Source: Candidatus Cloacimonadota bacterium (GTDB lineage: Bacteria; Cloacimonadota; Cloacimonadia; Cloacimonadales; JAFGVF01). Taken from it: a DNA stretch of 64,000 nt. Positions 8,672 through 57,477 of the stretch are shown in pieces (position 1 is the first letter of the stretch; every line of letters starts with the position of its first letter). The DNA is taken from assembly GCA_016838885.1 (NCBI GenBank), contig JAEKNW010000151.1, positions 3,024 through 67,023 of the forward strand. Direction: 5' to 3'. Under the pieces are notes generated by a model. The model searched no databases and was not told where the DNA came from. It was given only the letters and a program-made list of their open reading frames with translations. Both the position numbers and the translations under genes were made by a program.

Positions 8672-10039
8672 ATGGATACAAATATTGAAGCTTATGAAAA
8701 AAAAATGAGAGAAGCAGGCTTAAATGAAGACGTAATAACCACCTTCATTAAGTATTATAACCAATTGAAAGAAGGAATTACAGGTAAGCTTTCCCATGAT
8801 ATAATCGAAGCTCCAAATCGATTAAATTTAATAAACTACGATGGTTTAACAAAACATGATGATTCATTGTTAGACCAACTTGCAGTTATTAAACTAAATG
8901 GTGGATTAGGCACAAGTATGGGTCTGGATAAAGCAAAATCTCTCTTACCCGTTAAAGGTGAATTTAACTTTCTAGATATTCTTGCTAATCAAATAATTGC
9001 TCTAAGAGATAAATATCAATCTCGTATCCCTTTAATCTTTATGAATAGCTTTAAAACCCAGAAAGATACTATAACTTATCTTGAGAAATATGATACTCTT
9101 AAAAGTGATGATTTAGATCTTGATTTTCTCCAGAACAAATATCCCAGAATCAGACAAGATAATTTTATGCCCCTTAATTTAGCAGATGATGAGAATAATT
9201 GGAATCCGCCAGGACACGGTGATATTTATTCAGCACTTTACTCTTCAGGTTTGCTTGATCAACTTATAGAAAAAGGCTATAATTATGCCTTTATCTCTAA
9301 TTCAGATAACCTGGGAGCTGTTGTTGACCCTTTAATTCTAACCTTTATGGACAAAAATGAAGTCCCTTTTATCATGGAAGTTTGCCGAAGGACAGAAATG
9401 GACAAAAAGGGAGGTCATCTAGCCCAAACTAAAGAAGGCAAGCTGATTCTTAGAGAAGTTGCTCAATGCCCTGATGAAGAAATCTGCGAATTTCAAGATA
9501 TCAAAAAATATTCATTTTTTAATACCAATAATTTATGGGTCAATTTAAAGCATCTAAAAGAAACCCTGCTGGAAAACAATAACACACTTGAGTTACCCAT
9601 AATTATCAATCCTAAAAATGTCGAAAATATTCCAGTATATCAGATAGAAACGGCTATGGGAGCCGCTATAAGCGTCTTTGAAAATGCTAAAGCTATTATT
9701 GTCCCTCGCTCAAGATTTGCTCCTGTGAAAAAAACTAATGACCTATTACTTATTTGGTCTGATGTCTATAAAATAAATTCCGATTACCAAATTGTTCTTA
9801 CGGAAGGACTTGAAGAAGCACCTTTAATTGAATTAGATTCTGAGAACTATAAATCAGTAGAACAACTTAAAACTCACTTCAAAGAAGTCCCATCTTTAAT
9901 CCAGTGCACTAGCCTAAAAGTTCAAGGCAATATTCACTTCAGTAAAGATGTTGTAATTATCGGAAACGTAGAGATCAAAAGTACCGAAAAAGAGAGAATC
10001 TCCGATACTATTTTGAATAATGAAACTGTGATATTTTAA
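8672..10039 (+). CDS. UDPGP-family (eukaryotic-type) UTP--sugar-1-phosphate uridylyltransferase
   Basis: 455 aa. KLNGGLGTSMG nucleotide-binding loop, NSDNLGA, PPGHGD. This is the pattern of the UDP-glucose pyrophosphorylase (UGP2-like) family, not GalU. Confidence 0.8.
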   Translation: MDTNIEAYEKKMREAGLNEDVITTFIKYYNQLKEGITGKLSHDIIEAPNRLNLINYDGLTKHDDSLLDQLAVIKLNGGLGTSMGLDKAKSLLPVKGEFNFLDILANQIIALRDKYQSRIPLIFMNSFKTQKDTITYLEKYDTLKSDDLDLDFLQNKYPRIRQDNFMPLNLADDENNWNPPGHGDIYSALYSSGLLDQLIEKGYNYAFISNSDNLGAVVDPLILTFMDKNEVPFIMEVCRRTEMDKKGGHLAQTKEGKLILREVAQCPDEEICEFQDIKKYSFFNTNNLWVNLKHLKETLLENNNTLELPIIINPKNVENIPVYQIETAMGAAISVFENAKAIIVPRSRFAPVKKTNDLLLIWSDVYKINSDYQIVLTEGLEEAPLIELDSENYKSVEQLKTHFKEVPSLIQCTSLKVQGNIHFSKDVVIIGNVEIKSTEKERISDTILNNETVIF

Positions 10040-10064
10040 TCTATAAGGAAAATTGTGAGGACTT

Positions 10065-10457
10065 ATGCCATTACTAATTGTAACACCTGAAGAGATTACC
10101 GAAAGACTTAATAAATTCCCTAATATCCCTCAGATTATTAAGAATTATTCAATAAAAGAAAATAGCTTTCGGGTTGAAATGAAAATTGATAAAATCCCCA
10201 TGGATATAAAGATTAATCTAAAATTCGATTCCTATAGTGCTGGGATGATTTTTTTCTCCTATTCCTGTAATATCCCTAAAATATTCTTTAACATGCTCAA
10301 AGGGGTTATCAAAGATCGGACCAAAGAAATCATATCTATCGAAGATGATTTCATTAAAATGAATGCAGACCAACTAATCCTAAATACTAAAATTGGTTTC
10401 CAAATTAAGAATATCAACTTCGAACATGGATTCTATAAAATAGATTTTTCTCTCTAA
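10065..10457 (+). CDS. hypothetical protein
   Basis: 130-aa ORF in gene-dense + strand context with a GAGGA RBS. No motif recognised. Confidence 0.4.
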   Translation: MPLLIVTPEEITERLNKFPNIPQIIKNYSIKENSFRVEMKIDKIPMDIKINLKFDSYSAGMIFFSYSCNIPKIFFNMLKGVIKDRTKEIISIEDDFIKMNADQLILNTKIGFQIKNINFEHGFYKIDFSL

Positions 10458-10591
10458 TTATTGTATGAGAATAATAAATTGCTCTTTATAGTTTTCATAA
10501 ACAAGGGGAATGTCTAGAGCTGTCTCCTTTCTTCCCTTAGTTAATCACAAAGCTTCTCTCATATCGAGTAGGGCATAATTATAGCAAATTA

Positions 10592-10614
10592 AACCCAAAT
10601 AATGCATTCGGGTT
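10592..10614. repeat. minimal copy of the AACCC...GGGTT inverted-repeat element family
   Basis: aacccaaataatgcattcgggtt: left and right family termini fused into one short hairpin. Ends 17 nt before the ATG at 10632. Confidence 0.7.
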
Positions 10615-10631
10615 AAAATGGAGATTAAATC

Positions 10632-11321
10632 ATGCGAATTAGTGGAGTCCAGAAGTTTTCAATGATAGATTTTAATGACAAGTTATGTGCTGTAATATTC
10701 ACCCAGGGCTGTAATCTTCAGTGTCCATATTGTCATAACCCAGAGCTAGTTCCGATGTTAAGTAATAAGCCTTTGATCCCAACAGATGATATTTTAGACT
10801 TTTTGAGAAGTAGAATGGGTAAGCTTGATGCTGTGGCAATAACTGGTGGAGAACCTCTTTTGCAGAAGAATCTAATCCCTTTTTTACAAGAGATTAAGCA
10901 TATGGGTTACTTGATAAAAATAGATACAAATGGATTGCTGTATCATAAGTTAAGTCAAATTATTGAGAGTGGGTTACTTGATTATTTAGCCATGGATATT
11001 AAGGCTTCACTCTCAAGTTATGAAAAAGTTGTAAAAGTTAAGATAGATGAATCAAGTTTATTGAAAAGTATTGAGTTAATAAAGAATTCAGGGATTGAGC
11101 ATGAGTTTAGAACAACTGTTGTAGAAGGACTTATCACTGAAGCTGATATTTATGATATAGGAGATTTAGTAGGAGGGAGCAATTATTTTATCCAGAATTT
11201 CACCAAATCTCATCATTTAGATGAAGCTTATGAAAATCAAATCGGTTTTAGTAAAGAAAAATTGAAGAGAATAACTTTAAATCTACAAAGCAAAGGGATT
11301 AGAGTAAATTTAAGGAGTTAG
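10632..11321 (+). CDS. radical-SAM activating enzyme, anaerobic ribonucleotide reductase activase (NrdG)-like
   Basis: 229 aa. GCNLQCPYCHNPE CxxxCxxC cluster near the N-terminus and GGEPLLQ, as in NrdG/PflA-type activases. No nrdD nearby. Confidence 0.78.
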   Translation: MRISGVQKFSMIDFNDKLCAVIFTQGCNLQCPYCHNPELVPMLSNKPLIPTDDILDFLRSRMGKLDAVAITGGEPLLQKNLIPFLQEIKHMGYLIKIDTNGLLYHKLSQIIESGLLDYLAMDIKASLSSYEKVVKVKIDESSLLKSIELIKNSGIEHEFRTTVVEGLITEADIYDIGDLVGGSNYFIQNFTKSHHLDEAYENQIGFSKEKLKRITLNLQSKGIRVNLRS

Positions 11322-11322
11322 T

Positions 11323-11628
11323 TTGAAGCAAGTTTCACAAGTAATTATTGAGATTATCAAAGCGATTCCACCAGGTAAAATATTGACTTATGGAGAGATT
11401 GCCAGACGGGCAGGCACTCCTGCAACTGCAAGATTAGTGAGTTATCTACTTCATAGCAGCTCTGAAAAATATTGCCTCCCTTGGCATCGCGTTATTAATT
11501 CTAAAGGTCAAATTTCTTTAACTGGTATGGCTGGTGAAGAGCAAAAGCAGAAGCTTCTATCTGAGGGCATTAAAATTCATTCCGGGAAGATTGACCTAGA
11601 AAAATACACCTATCAAGGACAATTATAA
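11323..11628 (+). CDS. alkyltransferase-like (ATL) protein, MGMT DNA-binding domain without the acceptor cysteine
   Basis: 101 aa. TTG start with AAGGAG RBS. ILTYGEIA...LPWHRVINSKG: PWHRV replaces the PCHRV active site, as in YbaZ/Atl1. Confidence 0.75.
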   Translation: MKQVSQVIIEIIKAIPPGKILTYGEIARRAGTPATARLVSYLLHSSSEKYCLPWHRVINSKGQISLTGMAGEEQKQKLLSEGIKIHSGKIDLEKYTYQGQL

Positions 11629-11689
11629 TTGACAAGATTTTAGTTCTGTAATAAAAGTGATTAATAAACTAGGAAAGGAGTAAAAGGAT

Positions 11690-12268
11690 ATGAATTTTCT
11701 CTTATCATTGATTTTTTTACCTTTAAATTTGCTCTTTGGAGCATCTATTATCTGGTTAATCAGATGGCTCTTATTCAATAAGAAACAGAGATATATTTTT
11801 AAGAAAAAGAATATCTTAACTCCCGGATTGATTATAAAAGGGAAAAGTTATGCTTTAGGTAAAGTTCGGAATACAGTTAAAGAGTACTTTGATCAGGTTG
11901 ATGATTTTGAATCTCATCAGGGTTATATCTATAACTGGGAAAAGAAGGTTTACCAGAAAGTATATGATGCTACTGAGTTTATAGATAATGCCCGTTATAT
12001 TCCTACCAGTGTAGCTGATTGGTTGAGGCATGCGATCGCATTTATTGCTAAAGACTTATCATCCCGTTTTTTAAGAACCTTCATACCTTACCTTTATGAA
12101 TATTATGAAGTAAATAATAAAATCGATATGATAGCGGATAAGATTGATTTAGTTATGATTGAGAGTTATTATAACCAATACTGTCATAAATTCCTGATGT
12201 ACTTTAACTTATTCATATTCTTCTTAGCAGGAATTTTAAATCAGATTCTTTTCCTAATCTTAGTCTAA
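11690..12268 (+). CDS. membrane protein of unknown function
   Basis: 192 aa with hydrophobic N- and C-terminal segments and an AAGGAG RBS. The stop TAA overlaps the first bases of repeat 12267..12380. Confidence 0.45.
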   Translation: MNFLLSLIFLPLNLLFGASIIWLIRWLLFNKKQRYIFKKKNILTPGLIIKGKSYALGKVRNTVKEYFDQVDDFESHQGYIYNWEKKVYQKVYDATEFIDNARYIPTSVADWLRHAIAFIAKDLSSRFLRTFIPYLYEYYEVNNKIDMIADKIDLVMIESYYNQYCHKFLMYFNLFIFFLAGILNQILFLILV

Positions 12269-12398: not shown

Positions 12399-13148
12399 AT
12401 GGCTAGTGATGTAATTGATTATAGAATATTAGGAGATGACTTCCAAGCAGTGGAAATTGAGTTAGACCCTGGTGAAGGAGTCAGAGCAGAAGTAGGTGCA
12501 ATGCTCTTTATGGAAGATGATATCCAAATGGATACTTCAACCGGAGGTGGACTATTTAGTGGATTTAAAAGAATGGTTTCTGGTGAAAGTTTCTTCATTA
12601 CGACCTTCTTGAATCAAGGAAGATTTAAAAGAAAAGTTCTCTTCTCAGCCCCTTATCCTGGAAGAATTATGCCTATAAACTTAACTACTTTTGGAGGAGA
12701 ATTCTTTTGTCAAAAAGATGCCTATCTCTGTTCAGCCAAGGGTATTGATGTAACTATTGCTTTTACTAAGAAATTTGGGGCAGGACTCTTTGGTGGAGAA
12801 GGCTTTATTTTACAAAAATTAACCGGTGATGGTCTAGCTTTTATTCATGCTGGTGGGACAATAATTAAGCGGGATTTAGCCCCAATGGAAAGATTACGCG
12901 TCGATACCGGTTGTTTAGTCGGTTTTGAAAAAAGTGTAGATTATGATATCCAATTCGTAGGAGGCTTCAAAAATGCTCTCTTTGGTGGAGAAGGATTATT
13001 CTTAACAACTCTAACAGGCCCAGGAACTGTTTATCTTCAATCTCTTCCTTTCTCTCGAATTTCAGATAGAATCCTCAGAGCTGCCGGTTCTAATAAAGGC
13101 GAAGTAAAAAGAGGCGGACTTCTTTCTACTATTCTCTCAGGAGATTAA
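12399..13148 (+). CDS. TIGR00266 / AIM24-like family protein
   Basis: MASDVIDYRILGDDFQAVEIELDPGE..., repeated GGEG(F/L) strings. ATG at 12399 has a GGAG RBS. The listed start 12312 lies inside the repeat. Confidence 0.75.
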   Translation: MASDVIDYRILGDDFQAVEIELDPGEGVRAEVGAMLFMEDDIQMDTSTGGGLFSGFKRMVSGESFFITTFLNQGRFKRKVLFSAPYPGRIMPINLTTFGGEFFCQKDAYLCSAKGIDVTIAFTKKFGAGLFGGEGFILQKLTGDGLAFIHAGGTIIKRDLAPMERLRVDTGCLVGFEKSVDYDIQFVGGFKNALFGGEGLFLTTLTGPGTVYLQSLPFSRISDRILRAAGSNKGEVKRGGLLSTILSGD

Positions 13149-13913: not shown

Positions 13914-14088
13914 GTTGATTTGTTTATTTGTTGAACCGTTGATTTGTTTATTTGTTGAACCGTTGATTTGTTTAATTGTTTAATTGATAAGAAGAAGGTT
14001 GAATTGTTGAACCGTTGATTTGTTTAATTGTTTAATTGATAAGAAGAAGGTTGAATTGTTGAACCGTTGATTTGTTTAATTGTTTAAC
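13914..14088 (+). repeat. perfect tandem-repeat array (24-nt unit x2, 52-nt unit x2, plus a partial unit)
   Basis: gttgatttgtttatttgttgaacc at 13914 and 13938. gttgatttgtttaattgtttaattgataagaagaaggttgaattgttgaacc at 13962 and 14014. Partial fifth unit from 14066. Confidence 0.9.
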
Positions 14089-14104
14089 TGAGAAAGAGGG
14101 AGCT

Positions 14105-26406: not shown

Positions 26407-26429
26407 TTTCCACCAGACTTGAACTTGAG
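26407..26429 (-). repeat. 23-nt motif CTCAAGTTCAAGTCTGGTGGAAA (inverted copy)
   Basis: The + strand reads tttccaccagacttgaacttgag, the exact reverse complement of 31484-31506 and 55003-55025. Confidence 0.85.
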
Positions 26430-26604
26430 TCTAAAAAAACACCATAGGCTTCCAGATTACTGCTGGAGGTGATGGGATGAATTTCGGACTTTTTTACAAA
26501 ATATCAAGAGCAACTAGAGGCTAAGTATTCTTTTATCTAGTCCACTTAGAGCTTAAACAAATCCAAAAGTTCAATATGTATAAATAGCATCTCAGAAAAA
26601 AACA

Positions 26605-31350: not shown

Positions 31351-31483
31351 TATTGATCATATCGTATATCTTGACGCTAAAGCAAAAGAACTTGAGAATC
31401 TCCAAAATGGAAGCAAGACAATGATTATTCGCGGAGCAATGGGAAGAAAATTACCATACAGACTGGTCAATAATTTCTTATGG
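31351..31483 (+). pseudogene. 5' fragment of a disrupted gene
   Basis: Downstream of a GAGGAGA RBS the frame reads (I)DHIVYLDAKAKELENLQNGSKTMIIRGAMGRKLPYRLVNNF. It has no ATG and then runs into the 23-nt repeat motif and repeat debris. Confidence 0.3.
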
Positions 31484-31506
31484 CTCAAGTTCAAGTCTGG
31501 TGGAAA
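31484..31506 (+). repeat. 23-nt motif CTCAAGTTCAAGTCTGGTGGAAA
   Basis: Exact copy. Inverted relative to 26407-26429. Confidence 0.85.
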
Positions 31507-31598
31507 ATATTTAGCATTATTTTGCACTAGATATTGTATTACACTAATTTACGGATTAGAATGTACTCTTGATAGTAGTTTTTAGTTGAATAAGACAT

Positions 31599-31790
31599 AA
31601 TCCTGAAGGGATAGGTCTTATATCCCTAAAGGGGATAAATAGTTTAGCCCAGGGTAAGATGCTGAAAGTATCGCAACCCTGGGTTATGATGCATATAAAA
31701 AGTGTAACCCTGTAAGGGTTTAATAAAAACATGTATATCAAAGACTTATTATATTACATTGTTGGCATTATATTAAACCCTTACAGGGTT
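31599..31790. repeat. REP-like hairpin cluster related to the RAYT-flanking modules
   Basis: Contains aaatagtttagcccagggtaagatgctgaaagtatcgcaaccctgggtta (compare 55091-55140) plus short GAA/GTA-loop hairpins (atccct..agggat, aaccctgtaagggtt, aacccttacagggtt). Confidence 0.8.
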
Positions 31791-31839
31791 CTGGTTGTAG
31801 TTTCTGTTATTGGCCTTCAAAAGAGCCACTATTTTAGTT

Positions 31840-32167
31840 GGCTCTCTCTCAAGTAGGGTGGGTCTTAGAAAAAAAAAATAGAAGTATCTTTGAAGTATGC
31901 CATGTTCACAACAGATACAGGATTATAAAAACACACCATTCTACCAGCTGCAGAGGCAGCGACATCTTTGTAGTTCAGAAAGCTAAAAACTATCCATAAG
32001 CTCCAGAGGAGCGGCACATCTAAGGCTTTTTGTGTCGCTCCTCTGGAGCTTAGGTTATTGTTTGGCATCTGTTATCTACAAAGATTTCGCTCCTCCGGAG
32101 CTATGAGGATTTTGAAGCTTCTTGATTCACAATTAGATTTAGTTCCCACCCTACTTGAGAGAGAGCC
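31840..32167. mobile_element. palindromic MITE-like element with perfect 23-nt terminal inverted repeats
   Basis: ggctctctctcaagtagggtggg (31840-31862) and cccaccctacttgagagagagcc (32145-32167). Nested internal inverted repeats include a perfect 17-bp pair, taagctccagaggagcg / cgctcctctggagctta. Confidence 0.75.
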
Positions 32168-52980: not shown

Positions 52981-53887
52981 ACAAAGTAATAATCACGTCA
53001 TCATCATCAGATTCTTCTGCATCTCTTTGGGGTTTTTCTTTTCTTCTTTTAAAAAGTCTACGAATCCAGCCCCAGAAGAAGATAAGAGGGAATACCAGAC
53101 CCAGCATTGTCCCTCCGGTATAAATAGCATTAAGGATAATCTGGTGTTTGAAATCCTCTTCAAAATCATAATAAAATCTCTCTTTTGAGAAGCCAAAGCT
53201 TTTATTGAAGGCAATGTTAAAATTGGGATGAGTAGTGAACATAAGACTAAAGGCAGAGCTATTTTTCTCATGTAAAAAATCAACAGCCATAGCAGATTTA
53301 GCATAGAAAGAAGTAAGCTTGCTACTATCTTGAGGATATTTAACTTCCATTGTAGCAATGGAGGGTAGCTTGTTAGTTATGTAATCTAAGCCTAAGGCAT
53401 AGACCATATTAGTACTAAATTGACGAGAAAAGTGGATTGCCATCCCTTCATGAAACCAGAGAGGAGCATCCTTGAAGTGATAATCTATAAAGGCATGGAT
53501 GTATTCATGATGTAAAATTTGATAGAAAGTTGAAGAATTGCCAATTTCTAGAAAGCTTTTTATATAGATAATATTACCGCGTCTGCTATAAAAAGCATTA
53601 CTATGTTCAGTAATTCCTCCAAAGGTTGCAACTAAGTTTTGGAAATCCTCTTTATCATGGCTAAGATAGATTTTCTGTTTGAATTTGGGATAAACTCCAA
53701 TCTCCATTTGAAATCTATCAATTAATTTAGGCAGGTGTTCCATTATCTCTTCTGCCAAAAACCTATCTTGAGGATTGGCCTCAACTTCAATTAAATCATC
53801 TGTAAAAATAATCTTATCAGACCACAATGAAGTCAAAAATGTTAATAGCAGAAATATAAGAAGCAGGTTTTTAGAGTTTTTTAGCAT
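52979..53887 (-). CDS. membrane-anchored MA-clan (HExxH) peptidase-like protein
   Basis: N-terminal signal/anchor. HHEYIHAF...PLWFHEGMAIHF (HExxH plus a downstream E). C-terminal TM helix and acidic tail. Confidence 0.6.
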   Translation of the reverse strand: MLKNSKNLLLIFLLLTFLTSLWSDKIIFTDDLIEVEANPQDRFLAEEIMEHLPKLIDRFQMEIGVYPKFKQKIYLSHDKEDFQNLVATFGGITEHSNAFYSRRGNIIYIKSFLEIGNSSTFYQILHHEYIHAFIDYHFKDAPLWFHEGMAIHFSRQFSTNMVYALGLDYITNKLPSIATMEVKYPQDSSKLTSFYAKSAMAVDFLHEKNSSAFSLMFTTHPNFNIAFNKSFGFSKERFYYDFEEDFKHQIILNAIYTGGTMLGLVFPLIFFWGWIRRLFKRRKEKPQRDAEESDDDDVIITL

Positions 53888-54788
53888 TTACCTTTTTCCC
53901 TAAAGAGGCAAGATAAATGACAAATTCATTCTCTCCATCGAAACCTAAATATTCATTGATAAATTCATCGATAAAAGCACCAATTCCACAAACTCCACAA
54001 TTGATTGATTCTCCCGCAAGATAGAGATTTTGGCAGACATGTCCCGCATCTAAGTAGAGATAACGCCAAGATCTGGCTGAATATCGCCATACTGTTCTAT
54101 TAGGTATAGCAGACCAAATAAAATTAACAGCTGCTCCCTTGACCATGTTTTGCCTGTTACATGCTAGCCACAAATTCTCAAGAGTCTCAGGTTCAGAATC
54201 TAACAAAACAAGATTGTGTTTACCTGCATTATAGAAGTAGAATCCAGGCTTAACCCCTTCTACCCTATTGATATAGAGATATGTCTCAAAAGGATGACGA
54301 GCCCCGGCAGAAGGAACTGTTCTAAAAGTTACACTATTCTTTTCTGTCTCCTTAAGCTCTTTAACCCCTTGAGTAAGCCATAGAAGATAAGATAGTTCAT
54401 CTTTACTAATAGGGATTTCTGAATACTCACGAATTGATTTTCTGTCTTCTAAAATAGCCCTAAAATCGTTATGCTCAACCCTGATAGTTTGGGGATTGGG
54501 AAGTTTTATTACTTCTCCTTGCCTTGCTTTAAAAACTTCCGGCTTAGGAATACCCTTCATCTGATCTGAAACACTAGCATAAAGATAAGATGTTAACTCC
54601 ATGAACTTCTTCCCGATACCTTCAACCTCTTCATTTTTCTTGATTGTCTCTGCCACCTCTGAATCATACTCTTGGACTATACGAGCATAATCTTCATCTG
54701 AAACCTCAATCTCATCCTGGATAACTTTATCTTCATACCCTCGTGATTTCATCCTTAGATAAAAGAAACGTTCTCTAACTTTATCCAT
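53871..54788 (-). CDS. SagB/ThcOx-type nitroreductase-family dehydrogenase with N-terminal extension
   Basis: RKSIREYSEIPISKDELSYLLW, RTVPSAGARHPFETYLYI, YLDAGHVCQNLYL, typical of the SagB-type dehydrogenase domain. Overlaps the downstream gene by 17 nt. Confidence 0.75.
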   Translation of the reverse strand: MDKVRERFFYLRMKSRGYEDKVIQDEIEVSDEDYARIVQEYDSEVAETIKKNEEVEGIGKKFMELTSYLYASVSDQMKGIPKPEVFKARQGEVIKLPNPQTIRVEHNDFRAILEDRKSIREYSEIPISKDELSYLLWLTQGVKELKETEKNSVTFRTVPSAGARHPFETYLYINRVEGVKPGFYFYNAGKHNLVLLDSEPETLENLWLACNRQNMVKGAAVNFIWSAIPNRTVWRYSARSWRYLYLDAGHVCQNLYLAGESINCGVCGIGAFIDEFINEYLGFDGENEFVIYLASLGKKVNAKKL

Positions 54789-55090
54789 AACTCTACCTCT
54801 CTTAAATTTCTTTTTTTACTAGTATAATACATAAAGGGTTTTATGTCAAATTAATTAATTACCCTGAATATTTGTTTAATTGTTTATTTGTTGAATTGTT
54901 GAAGAAGAAGAGCTTTCACACAAATTGACCCGAATTATTACAAATTACAAGAATGTAGAGCAAAAGATCTTTTGCCCTACTTCACAGGAGCGAAACCTTT
55001 GGCTCAAGTTCAAGTCTGGTGGAAATAATATAGGAAAATGAGAATATTTCACTTATATAGTGATTCATCATATATCCCTGAAAGGGATTA

Positions 55091-55140
55091 AATAGTTTAG
55101 CCCAGGGTAAAATTCCTGAAAGGAATTGCAACCCTGGGTA
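55091..55140 (+). repeat. 50-nt REP module (nested hairpin)
   Basis: aatagtttagcccagggtaaaattcctgaaaggaattgcaaccctgggta. cccagggt/accctggg outer stem and aattcc/ggaatt inner stem. Confidence 0.9.
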
Positions 55141-55259
55141 CTTGATGTATAAACAACACCCTACCCTGAAAGGGTTAAATAATATCTTATACACCAAAGA
55201 CATATTAAATACATTATTTATTCTTTTATTAAAACCTTACCCTGAAAAGGTTTAATAAA

Positions 55260-55715
55260 TTAATCCCAAAAATACCGTTCATCAATTTCCATTTTATTTT
55301 TGGTCATGAACAACCTAAGTTCATCTTGGAAAGAAACCTTTTTATGATGCTCACTTTGATTGTTAATATAATCAATTGTTATTTGTTTTTGTGCTTGACC
55401 TATGGAAAATCCCCCATAACCTGCTTGCCAGTAGAAGTTTGAATATTCGTCTCCTTTAGTCTTTATCCATTTAGATGTAGACCTCTTTATATCTCCTACT
55501 ATGTTCTTAAAACAAATATTCTTTGATAAATTGAGAAGAATATGGATATGATCTTCATACCCACCTATACAAACTGGATATGAATCATTTTCGTAGATTA
55601 TTTTTGCTATATAAGAAAATAATTGTTCTCTGATATCAGAATGTTTTAAAAAGGGAACTCTGTTTTTGGTAGAAAATACAACATGCATATAAATTTGAGC
55701 AACTGACTGTGCCAT
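55260..55715 (-). CDS. IS200-like Y1 (HUH) transposase / REP-associated tyrosine transposase (RAYT)-type protein
   Basis: YMHVVFSTKNRVPFL N-terminus, HUH motif DHIHILL, C-terminal YWQAGYGGFSIG. ATG 55715 is preceded by GGTGGTGA. No tnpB partner. Confidence 0.8.
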   Translation of the reverse strand: MAQSVAQIYMHVVFSTKNRVPFLKHSDIREQLFSYIAKIIYENDSYPVCIGGYEDHIHILLNLSKNICFKNIVGDIKRSTSKWIKTKGDEYSNFYWQAGYGGFSIGQAQKQITIDYINNQSEHHKKVSFQDELRLFMTKNKMEIDERYFWD

Positions 55716-55823
55716 AAATATCACCACCTGTTATTTAATGATGTAATAATTAAAAATATGAACAGTTTGTCAATTAAAAAATATTATGTATCCCTTTCAG
55801 GGATAATTTAGATTTTATCTAAA

Positions 55824-55873
55824 TACCCAGGGTTGCAATTCCTTTCAGGAATTTTACCCTGGGCTAAACTATT
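55824..55873 (-). repeat. 50-nt REP module, inverted copy
   Basis: Exact reverse complement of 55091-55140. Confidence 0.9.
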
Positions 55874-56278
55874 TATCCCCCTTGGGGATTTGAAGAGTTA
55901 CATACCCTCAATAATTTTTTGATATCTTTTCAATGGTAAGGTCTTCATATATTTCTTTTTGGCTCTAGTTCGAGTCTGGTGGAAATAATACAGGAAAATG
56001 AGAATATTTCACTAATATAGTGATTCATCATATATCCCTGAAAGGGATTTTTTAAATGCATCATTCTGGATAAATAAATAAACAATTCAACAAAATTTTC
56101 GTGTAAAAGCTCTTCTTTCTTTTCGGTGTATTCAGTGTTTCCAGTGGCTAAGTTTTCTTCTTCTTTTTTGTGTTCTTTGTGCCTTTGTGGTAAAAAATTC
56201 TCCCCGTCTCCCCGTCTCCCCGTCTTTTCGCGAATAGCGAAAACTGTGGTGAAAAATCTCCCTCTTTTCGCGAGTAGC

Positions 56279-56317
56279 AAAAAAAAGCCAACCTATCTTC
56301 ATAAGCTGGCTTTTTTA
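56279..56317 (-). terminator. terminator ending the purS...orf377 operon (bidirectional shape)
   Basis: The minus strand reads agccagc-loop-gttggct (7 bp, one G-U) followed by TTTTTTTT. There is also a T-run on the + side. Confidence 0.65.
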
Positions 56318-56343: not shown

Positions 56344-57477
56344 TTACTCTTCAATAACTTCGACATTAGCACGAGGAATAAGGACTTCTTCGCCAGTGTT
56401 AAGTTTAGCTTTAAGAACTCTCACTAGGGTTTCAGATTCGACTTTAGTGAGTAGTTCAGGTAATTCTGTGATACGTCCAATTTCACCGAAGTTAGGTTGT
56501 CTAATCACACGGATAAGAGAACCAATTTCCAAGGAAGCCATTTCAGCTTCTTTGGCTACTAATTCTTCGCCTTCAACCAAAGGAAGAGGGATAATCACTT
56601 CAGGTCTCATGACACCTGCCCTAATTTGGGTAAAACCGTGAACAGAAGCTTTATGACCTTCGAATTTTTTAAGAAGTTCAAAAGTATTTTTAGCCATGGT
56701 AATCGGTCCAAAACCTTCAGTAACAACTAAAGTAACTCCGATCTTTTCATGTCCGGTAATAGCCACACCGATATCATAACCTAAGAGTTTTTTAAGGTCT
56801 TGGTCATCAACTCCACCCGAGATGATAGCACTTACTCCGATTTCGGCAGCTTTTTTTATTGCTTCTAAAGGACAGAGAGCACCTGCAACAATAACTTTCC
56901 CTTTGCAATCAGGAGTAATACTGGCAGGATCTAAATGGTCATTAGGAGTTTTAGCCAGCATTTTGATCTCACCTGTAGTTTCTCCAGCGAGACCGAAAAT
57001 ACCTTGGATATAAGCTGATCTATTTTCTATGACAACACCTTCATTAGGGATGACTTCAGTAACGATACCATCAACGAAGGCTTTAATTTGTACAGGAATA
57101 CGTGGTTCTCTAAGAACTGCATTACCTGTAGCAGAGGAGATACTTTCAACTTCTCCGTCTATAGGTGATTTTACAGTAGCTTTGAAGAGACCTGTACCAA
57201 ACAAGCCTTTAGTTTCGGCAATCACTTGATCTTTATGAATTTTATCACCGACTTTTACTGTTAGATAATTACCCAACATCTGGGGGGTACATCCTAATTT
57301 ATTAGCAATTTTATAAGGTAAAACTTTACCGGGTAAAGAGGTATGAGCAACAATATCATCTGCTTTAACTCTATCACCTTTTTTAACTCTAACTTCCCCT
57401 TTTAAAGGAAGAATTCTATCTTTTTTTAGAACAATATTCTCAGTTACTGTTAATCCAGCTGAATATGCTTGTGCCAT
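56344..57477 (-). CDS. conserved hypothetical protein with N-terminal barrel-sandwich (lipoyl/RnfC-like) motif
   Basis: 377 aa. GEVRVKKGDRVKADDIVAHT hybrid-barrel-like string. Starts 9 nt after the GlmL-like gene stop. Confidence 0.6.
   Translation of the reverse strand: MAQAYSAGLTVTENIVLKKDRILPLKGEVRVKKGDRVKADDIVAHTSLPGKVLPYKIANKLGCTPQMLGNYLTVKVGDKIHKDQVIAETKGLFGTGLFKATVKSPIDGEVESISSATGNAVLREPRIPVQIKAFVDGIVTEVIPNEGVVIENRSAYIQGIFGLAGETTGEIKMLAKTPNDHLDPASITPDCKGKVIVAGALCPLEAIKKAAEIGVSAIISGGVDDQDLKKLLGYDIGVAITGHEKIGVTLVVTEGFGPITMAKNTFELLKKFEGHKASVHGFTQIRAGVMRPEVIIPLPLVEGEELVAKEAEMASLEIGSLIRVIRQPNFGEIGRITELPELLTKVESETLVRVLKAKLNTGEEVLIPRANVEVIEE

Follow-up and report, generated by a model that had tools for sequence, protein, structure and literature searches.

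The association of repetitive extragenic palindromic (REP) sequences with REP-associated tyrosine transposases (RAYTs) is the textbook case of a domesticated single-stranded DNA (ssDNA) transposase combined with genomic repeats. The origin of REP/RAYT from IS200-like elements is a standing question, and the closest relatives of the true IS200 transposases are the Y1 proteins of subclass 1.2. In the classification of Quentin, Siguier, Chandler & Fichant 2018 (BMC Genomics 19:475, PMC6006769), subclass 1.2 forms the sister group of the true IS200 transposases and lies outside the RAYT groups of Bertels et al. Its members are ~148 amino acids (aa) long, carry the motifs DH[IV]H, WQ and YIKNQKEHH, occur in a mean of 1.7 copies without the properties of an insertion sequence (IS), and are entered as "REP: no". 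The present analysis concerns a gene of this kind, and the nest of hairpins and repeats around it, on a 64,000-nucleotide (nt) stretch from a Candidatus Cloacimonadota bacterium (assembly GCA_016838885.1, contig JAEKNW010000151.1, positions 3,024 to 67,023), hereafter the window. The nest is probably an 801-bp IS200-like Y1 element with inverted bipartite hairpin ends and gene-less derivatives resembling REP doublets (REPINs), nested in a fragment of a DDE-type miniature inverted-repeat transposable element (MITE). The census of copy number and dispersal was drawn from related genomes, whose compared loci are labelled with L-numbers.

The protein is a class-1 Y1 (HUH) ssDNA transposase of subclass 1.2 and not a RAYT. 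Its gene is an intact open reading frame (ORF), with a product that matches Pfam Y1_Tnp (E=2.7e-22) and no TnpB-like ORF beside it, as a first-pass annotation made from the letters alone had reported. The start adopted here is the ATG used by all homologues, which gives 151 aa (a mechanical ORF call from GTG gives 155 aa) and is immediately preceded by AGGTGGTGA, resembling a ribosome-binding site. The same annotation had called the protein RAYT-type, a label that did not survive comparison. The class-1 tyrosine motif Y-x3-Q is present and the class-2 motif Y-x3-NP is absent; the score against the NCBIfam model REP_Tyr_transpos (NF047646) is 26.4 bits, far below the cutoff of 80, and the IS200 model (NF033573) is passed marginally (57.3 bits, cutoff 55). 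Profile alignment with hhalign gave a probability of 99.1% (E=4e-19) to an Aeromonas TnpB-linked IS200/IS605 TnpA, and 0.3% with no alignment to E. coli RayT (MG1655).

Structural comparisons point the same way. A single-sequence search of the PDB returned no match, and the family profile was needed to reach IS608 (1.5e-11), ISDra2 (4e-9) and the Sulfolobus IS200-type transposases; E. coli TnpA_REP (4ER8) was not matched by this profile. The AlphaFold model (pLDDT 90) has the TnpA proteins of IS608 and ISDra2 as its nearest Foldseek neighbours (E ~1e-8), with 4ER8 at rank 30. Within class 1, where subclass 1.1 has W[TS] and Y[IV]ENQ, this protein has WQ and YINNQ; its three motifs read EDHIHIL, FYWQAGYG and YINNQSEHH, and the HuH motif, the W motif, the tyrosine motif and the length with a C-terminal tail all agree with subclass 1.2. 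The alignment of 25 homologues from several phyla (~50% identity across phyla, 66% mean column identity) leaves H56, H58, W96, Q97, Y116, Q120, E122, H123 and H124 invariant. Residues 125-151 are also conserved, with F129, E132, Y148 and W150 invariant in the same alignment; this tail, modelled as an extra helix at 129-139, was set beside subclass 1.2 by its published description and not by that paper's hidden Markov model. The best homologues, 62-85% identical, come from Cloacimonadales. Low gene copy number also agrees with the subclass, with one copy in the window and one per sampled genome except for an array in L003, but terminal structures are present here, where the subclass description has neither REP nor IS-type ends.

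Names given to homologues are inconsistent, from "REP element-mobilizing transposase RayT" at JGI to "IS200/IS605 family transposase" at NCBI, which calls for caution in genome annotation.

The gene lies between the arms of a 63-nt inverted repeat (55081-55143 and 55821-55883, 94% complementary), of which 52 nt are exact (55089-55140 and 55824-55875); the exact part takes in a pair of perfect inverted 50-nt modules that had already been recognised. Folded as ssDNA, the arms reach -17.7 and -17.5 kcal/mol (z = -5.4 and -5.0), and neither this inverted repeat nor the direct repeat described below had a match in shuffled sequence (0 matches). Each arm consists of a small hairpin (ATCCC-loop-GGGAT), an 11-nt spacer ending in TTTAG, and a nested hairpin (CCCAGGG-TAAAA-TTCC-TGAAA-GGAA-TTGCAA-CCCTGGG). 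The unit as a whole reads TAAATAGTTTAG, nested hairpin, inner hairpins, gene, hairpins, nested hairpin in reverse complement, CTAAACTATTT and small hairpin ATCCCCCTTGGGGAT, with small hairpins of the ACCCTGAAAGGGT type standing between each nested hairpin and the gene. The GTAG (GT[AG]G) head of REP sequences is absent: the stem is preceded by TTAG in the window and by TCAG, ATAG or AAAG elsewhere, AG alone being constant. Guide pairing in the manner of IS608 was looked for by eye across phyla, between the bases that precede the nested hairpin on its 5' side and the tetranucleotide at the putative cleavage site, and gave no convincing pattern.

The hairpin is neither confined to this gene nor to this phylum. 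A DNA-led scan with the nested-hairpin pattern AGCCCWGGGTAA-N12-20-GCAACCYTGGG, in one genome per species, yielded at least 118 stretches distributed over at least 10 phyla, including Cloacimonadales, Planctomycetota, Chlamydiales, Parachlamydiales, Verrucomicrobiota, Lentisphaeria, Kiritimatiellae, Bacteroidota, Balneolales, Acidobacteriota, Nitrospinia and others. Repeated matches were seen in several genomes; the sampled blocks of one Cloacimonadales assembly of 3.3 Mb contain at least 33 modules. Among the matches listed, which are 8-kb blocks or shorter contig ends, a Y1 gene is present in ~9 of 118 stretches. The commonest form is a convergent doublet, ~175 nt apart, with the ends of the gene-bearing unit and no gene. 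In the part of the hairpin that the pattern leaves free, 96 different inner sequences were found. A perfect inner stem is formed by most of them, 45% having at least four pairs counted from the ends, compared with 0.6% after shuffling. In the window itself, the module recurs in a diverged, truncated, gene-less copy (~31600-31800) that lacks the right nested hairpin; with the doublets of related genomes, this confirms the expectation that the module would be found elsewhere.

The link between hairpin and protein was also seen from the opposite direction, in 80 metagenome loci picked solely by protein similarity, 72 of them evaluable. In about two thirds of these protein-led loci, the bipartite signal recurs in inverted copies on the two sides of the gene. 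Scored as AG followed by a perfect, GC-rich hairpin with a minimum of 7 bp in the 300 nt next to the gene, it was found upstream in 44/72, mirrored downstream in 46/72 and on both sides in 35/72 (1.4% in shuffles). The stems covary (CCCAGGG, CCTGGGG, CACAGGG, CGTAGGG, CCAGGGG, CATGGGG and others) around a constant AG and GC foot. The recurrence of the same signal at most protein-led loci, together with covarying stems on a constant foot, argues for co-evolution of the protein and its DNA signal. The hairpin flanks contradict the "REP: no" entry for subclass 1.2 (PMC6006769). A literature search on the terms of that classification found no later paper on the subclass, and one on RAYT, REPIN, IS200 and Cloacimonadota found no description of these hairpins.

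Several variants of the module deserve mention. Hairpins of variant A (CCCAGGG..CCCTGGG) and variant B (CCTGGGG..CCCCAGG) coexist, with compensatory changes in the stem, at L028 2542-3009, L075 5857-6324, L107 5780-6250 and L001 9840-10580; the MITEs of OY782499 and OY759729 hold one hairpin of each variant, and the OY782499 Y1 gene (L001; protein 73% identical to that of the window) has variant-B ends. Genome CAXXJV, despite a frameshifted Y1 gene, ranks first in gene-less modules across the sampled blocks, with at least 33. Tandem Repeats Finder reported no array at L096, though several adjacent doublets are present there. The arrangement at L078 is nearer the classical REPtron layout.

The second component of the nest is a transposon of another kind. 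Two 92-nt direct repeats with four mismatches had been reported on either side of the unit, and both their coordinates and their mismatches (at 55006, 55012, 55031 and 55054) were reproduced. Their interpretation as brackets of a block that moved as a whole was not borne out: the 92-mer is exactly the terminal inverted repeat (TIR), left arm and small hairpin of a separate MITE family, and no second copy of the block was found. The 22-nt TIR core GGCTCAAGTTCAAGTCTGGTGG has four sites in the window (26410-, 31482+, 55001+ and 55961+) and 61 in the sampled Cloacimonadales DNA, mostly as inverted pairs 450-680 bp apart. At least 12 TIR pairs are bounded by 8-bp AT-rich direct duplications, such as GATTCTTT, TATTTTTA, ATAATTTT, AAAAGATC, TAAAGTAT, ATAGTTAA and TAACTAAA. 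TIR pairs with 8-bp target site duplications (TSDs) mark this as a MITE mobilised by a DDE-type transposase. The units are 230-680 bp long (~470 bp in the doublet-bearing form), and their alignment reads TIR, ~50-nt left arm, small hairpin, Y1 doublet, small hairpin, ~130-nt right arm and TIR, so that the MITE bears the hairpin doublet as a passenger.

Arm 1 of the window runs straight into the gene-bearing unit. Arm 2 is orphaned: it has no partner TIR, nothing after its hairpin and unique sequence beyond; since both arms lack partner TIRs, their TSDs cannot be read. Loci of other phyla lack the GGCTCAAGTTCAAGTCTGGTGG motif, which makes the MITE a lineage-specific vehicle. No autonomous partner transposase with the same TIRs was seen in the sampled blocks, in which no scan was aimed at one. 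The TIR start GGCTC and the 8-bp TSD may resemble those of the ISL3 family; the literature on the ISL3 consensus gave nothing usable. The GTTCAAGTC core of the 92-mer was also considered as a tRNA 3' fragment or attachment (att) site and dropped, the core being the MITE terminal repeat.

The point at which the two components join can be read in one related genome. OY782499 (L075) has the MITE in two lengths, 229 and 468 bp, each with 8-bp TSDs of its own and with arms that are 100% identical between the two (88 + 147 nt). All that the long form has in addition is a 239-bp block, composed of TAATAATTTAG, nested hairpin, nested hairpin in reverse complement, CTAAACTATTA and ATCCCCTTTAGGGAT. This block sits exactly after the small hairpin ATCCCTGAAAGGGAT, without a TSD and with a 6-nt ambiguity (AGGGAT). 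On sequence grounds, the difference fits an insertion or excision of the IS200/IS605 type beside a specific sequence, in which the left small hairpin would be the target and the right small hairpin the end of the element. The unit of the window obeys the same rule, running from T55089 to GGGGAT at 55889, and both 92-mers have their right edge at this same small-hairpin foot. When further "empty" small hairpins running directly into the right arm were sought, L075 was the one example.

Observations on the gene-bearing unit in other genomes bear on its mobility. In L001, L002, L003 and L063, it occupies four contexts other than that of the window. L003 holds a tandem array (9422-11864) of 646-bp units, bounded by a 75-nt inverted repeat, with one internally deleted copy and three identical intact Y1 genes. 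The Y1 gene at L002 10001-10451 (= L118; genome CAXXJV) is frameshifted near codon 128 and is a pseudogene. We read this as the mark of a Y1 element that probably still moves or moved recently, from a comparison of different species in which the gene-bearing unit has no empty/filled pair. Two further peculiarities were seen at these loci. L003 also contains a gene-less MITE copy (12512-13018) with an insertion in the loop of the small hairpin, and in L001 the Y1 gene is immediately followed by 2.2 copies of a 172-bp unit (10551-10932) that includes the right-end hairpins, with a ~40-nt insertion in the loop of one nested hairpin.

From these structures we infer which enzyme moves what and where exactly cleavage would fall. 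The Y1 enzyme would bind the module hairpins on ssDNA, cut at the 3' foot of a small hairpin (immediately after GGGAT) and rejoin there without target duplication, as IS608 and ISDra2 do, the element thus being inserted beside a pre-existing small hairpin. Internally deleted, gene-less doublets would act as non-autonomous derivatives, like REPINs or palindrome-associated transposable elements (PATEs). In the Cloacimonadales lineage, the element and its doublets would have landed at a hairpin within a different, DDE-type MITE, which then would have carried the doublet along as it spread. Arm 1 of the window would bear the gene-carrying element at its hairpin and arm 2 would be an orphan with its hairpin empty.

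A number of observations weigh against this scheme. The joining site rests on one short/long pair, and slippage between the 6-nt AGGGAT repeats at the base of the 239-nt palindrome would give the same product. The junction of the L003 array falls at the 3' foot of the nested hairpin, directly after ACCCTGGG, and not at that of the small one. Inverted ends put the recognised hairpin on opposite strands, which fits a REPIN better than a peel-and-paste element. Finally, the 64-kb window holds a single intact copy of the gene, with one further, partial copy of the element that lacks it, and the DDE-type MITE, not Y1 activity, accounts for much of the copy number in Cloacimonadales.

Other explanations were weighed against the same evidence. 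The gene could be domesticated in the manner of a REPtron, as a single-copy host gene, itself immobile, that spreads or maintains doublets in trans, the flanking modules being the nearest REPINs. The small share of gene-bearing stretches among many gene-less modules (~9/118 among the matches listed), the mean of 1.7 copies without IS properties in Quentin et al. 2018 (PMC6006769), the near absence of the family from plasmids and its absence from phages, and the very high conservation of the protein across phyla all speak for it, as does L078 6776-7840 (Haloferula sp. BvORR071), where a Y1 gene (42% identical) lies between two complete doublets and not inside one. It is a serious rival, though in our view an unlikely one, given that the gene is at a different locus in every genome examined and missing from the locus of the window in three relatives, in a comparison that spans different species and not strains within one, and that identical arrayed copies in L003 and a decaying pseudogene in L002 are IS-like behaviour. 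A quite improbable alternative is that the doublets are inert passengers, spread by the DDE-type MITE and its equivalents alone, with the odd junctions due to palindrome-stimulated slippage and the Y1 protein inactive on doublets or engaged in another role. The 8-bp TSDs do bound TIR units that carry doublets, and microhomology of 6 nt at the short/long junction and 8 nt at the L003 array junction is what slippage would leave. Against this, doublets are multicopy in phyla without the Cloacimonadales TIR motif, and the same bipartite hairpin, with covarying stems, accompanies the gene in most protein-sampled homologues.

The model originally put forward for the window, in which a 960-bp block of gene and REP sequences was moved or duplicated and the 92-mers are its footprint (for example, of Y1 read-through from 55088 to 56048), must be called very improbable. 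The two arms are 96% identical, more alike than the arms of other copies, the right edge of both is the putative Y1 joining site, and identical hairpin feet delimit tandem structures in L003 and L001. However, both copies begin, on the left, at the tip of the MITE TIR, which is the transposon end of another system; the block was found once only, a 960-bp period did not extend beyond 1.1 units, and the sequence that follows copy 2 is unique. As for a bona fide class-2 RAYT with classical REPs, a lone Y1 gene between inverted hairpin modules and the JGI label would suggest it, but the missing Y-x3-NP, the NF047646 score of 26 against a cutoff of 80, the failure to align with E. coli RayT and the missing GTAG head leave it next to no credence, and membership in that family is refuted by sequence comparison.

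With the nested Y1 element as the preferred reading, the locus can be set beside the described systems. It resembles subclass 1.2 (PMC6006769) in its motifs, its ~150 aa with a conserved C-terminal tail, its few gene copies and its position near to but distinct from IS200 TnpA; it differs in having inverted bipartite hairpins and dispersed gene-less doublets, and in a range that includes Cloacimonadota, the Planctomycetota–Verrucomicrobiota–Chlamydiota (PVC) phyla, Acidobacteriota and others. With IS608 and ISDra2 it shares the HUH/Y1 fold, the Y-x3-Q spacing and subterminal hairpins with putative joining sites outside them; one informative comparison would also fit insertion or excision without target duplication beside a specific sequence. 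In contrast to them, it has no TnpB, its ends are bipartite and inverted, not same-strand copies, and its apparent target is a hairpin like the element's own right end. The first-pass annotation was right that classic IS200/IS605 ends are lacking: unlike the left and right ends of subclass 1.1, which differ from each other, have hairpins on the same strand and lack terminal inverted repeats, the ends here are the 63-nt inverted repeat, which is also found in homologues.

The arrangement had further been equated with REP/RAYT, and this held in part. As with E. coli RayT and the Pseudomonas RAYTs and their REPs, REPINs and bacterial interspersed mosaic elements (BIMEs), a lone Y1 gene stands between inverted palindromes, gene-less inverted doublets are dispersed (a REPtron- or REPIN-like trait), and a short conserved motif precedes a GC-rich stem with a conserved foot and a variable top. 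What did not hold is the protein, which is class 1 here, and the GTAG head, replaced by xxAG; there are also tens and not hundreds of modules per genome, and the gene-bearing unit looks mobile. The remark that such arrangements are known mainly from proteobacteria does not apply to this pair of hairpin and protein, which occurs in Cloacimonadota, Planctomycetota, Chlamydiota, Verrucomicrobiota, Bacteroidota, Acidobacteriota and others. PATEs and other MITEs derived from IS200/IS605 are likewise non-autonomous and keep only the hairpin ends of a Y1 element, whereas the derivatives here are palindromic doublets that, in Cloacimonadales, are nested in a MITE of the TIR/TSD type. That MITE shares terminal inverted repeats and 8-bp AT-rich duplications with other DDE-type MITEs, and differs in carrying a hairpin that would serve as a Y1 landing site.

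Both the protein family and this kind of system were known before. New relative to the searched literature are the cognate hairpins of subclass 1.2, their breadth across phyla, the junction at the hairpin foot and the nesting of two transposons. The hairpin frames, dispersed doublets and putative foot junction provide subclass 1.2 with a candidate substrate and a testable mechanism. It is tentatively proposed, at somewhat less than even odds, that subclass 1.2 may be the enzyme of a third, widespread REPIN-like system, whose DNA signal, conserved with the protein in at least 10 phyla, would be made up of a small hairpin, an AG-terminated spacer and a hairpin with a CCCAGGG/CCCTGGG foot. It would lie mechanistically between IS200, with its mobile gene and duplication-free joining at a hairpin foot, and RAYT/REPIN, with inverted doublets moved in trans, as a plausible evolutionary intermediate, and the Cloacimonadales composite would be moved by two unrelated transposition chemistries. 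The nesting of an HUH element in a DDE-type MITE also means that hitch-hiking can inflate "REP-like" copy numbers, which bears on inferring RAYT activity from a census.

The features of the window are collected in Table 1.

Table 1. Features of the Y1 locus and related elements in the window.
Feature	Coordinates	Strand	Basis or remark
Y1 (HUH) ssDNA transposase gene, 151 aa, TnpA_Y1 subclass 1.2 signature	55260..55715	-	ORF and profiles
Promoter-like TTGACA-16-AATTAT upstream of the gene	55746..55773	-	Consensus match only
Putative transposable Y1 unit, 801 bp	55089..55889		Boundaries by analogy with the L075 short/long MITE pair and MITE-arm alignment
Small hairpin ATCCCTGAAAGGGAT, end of MITE left arm 1; putative target, Y1 unit joined at its 3' foot	55074..55088		
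Nested hairpin module CCCAGGGTAAAATTCCTGAAAGGAATTGCAACCCTGGG	55101..55138	+	
Inner hairpin after the stop codon, ACCCTGAAAGGGT type, two copies (55155-55182, 55231-55258)	55155..55258		76-nt-spaced local duplication
Inner hairpin TATCCCTTTCAGGGATA between nested hairpin and promoter-like site	55789..55805		
Nested hairpin module, identical inverted copy	55826..55863	-	
Small hairpin ATCCCCCTTGGGGAT, putative right end of the Y1 unit, ending at 55889	55875..55889		
MITE left arm 1 (repeat copy 1)	54998..55089	+	TIR core GGCTCAAGTTCAAGTCTGGTGG at 55001-55022, ~50 nt, small hairpin
Spacer, 68 nt	55890..55957		First 25-30 nt weakly resemble the MITE right-arm start (TTGAAGAGTTACATACCCTCA vs TTAAGACTTATCCCTTCA)
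MITE left arm 2 (repeat copy 2)	55958..56049	+	TIR core 55961-55982; small hairpin 56034-56048 without insert after it
Gene-less truncated MITE/hairpin copy	31482..31800	+	TIR 31482-31503, long arm, small hairpins, nested hairpin 31648-31683, two inner hairpins
Solo MITE terminal repeat core, one mismatch	26410..26431	-	
SagB-type nitroreductase gene	53871-54788	-	One flank of the gap
377-aa biotin-lipoyl/RnfC_N-like gene	56344-57477	-	Other flank of the gap
Lineage-specific 1.4-kb segment replacing bioY-ecfA-cbiQ (and neighbours) of relatives	54856-56261		Locus comparison

The whole repeat nest and the Y1 gene are held in an intergenic gap of 1.55 kb, beside a gene whose product is 89-95% identical to Cloacimonadales proteins. 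In the relatives L122, L124 and L125 (6135-8520), the space between the 377-aa gene and the nitroreductase gene is occupied by the bioY-ecfA-cbiQ operon of a biotin energy-coupling factor (ECF) transporter, accompanied in one of the three by further genes, and the flanking genes are ~86% identical in DNA to those of the window. The presence comparison that had been called for found neither Y1 nor MITE sequence at this orthologous locus in the three relatives; the repeat nest took the place of the operon that they keep. The spacer between the Y1 unit and arm 2 has no repeat match elsewhere. By BLAST against all compared DNA, the unique segments 54856-54997, 55886-55957 and 56050-56261 contain no repeats and are not parts of the MITE. 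Scans of the window for tRNA, tmRNA and Rfam families returned nothing.

Other repeats were noted in the window. An unrelated intergenic family, AACCCGAATGGTGCAGTAGAACTTTGATGAAGAGT-like, has 5-6 copies (at 12251, 19048, 25933, 36203, 47456 and 63077), and related sequence also adjoins the elements in L002 and L003. The short repeat GGCTCTCTCTCAAGTAGGGTGGG truncates the gene-less hairpin element at 31800; its inverted copies (31838-31860 and ~32140-32165) bracket a palindromic block at 31990-32100, and it also occurs at L003 13455-13480. A 52-nt tandem array of TTGTTTAATTG-type units lies at 13914-14101, with a related stretch to the left of the Y1 locus (54850-54901), and to the right of that locus (56199-56283) there are a TCTCCCCG microsatellite of 3.4 repeats and two TTTTCGCGAATAGCGAAAA hairpins.

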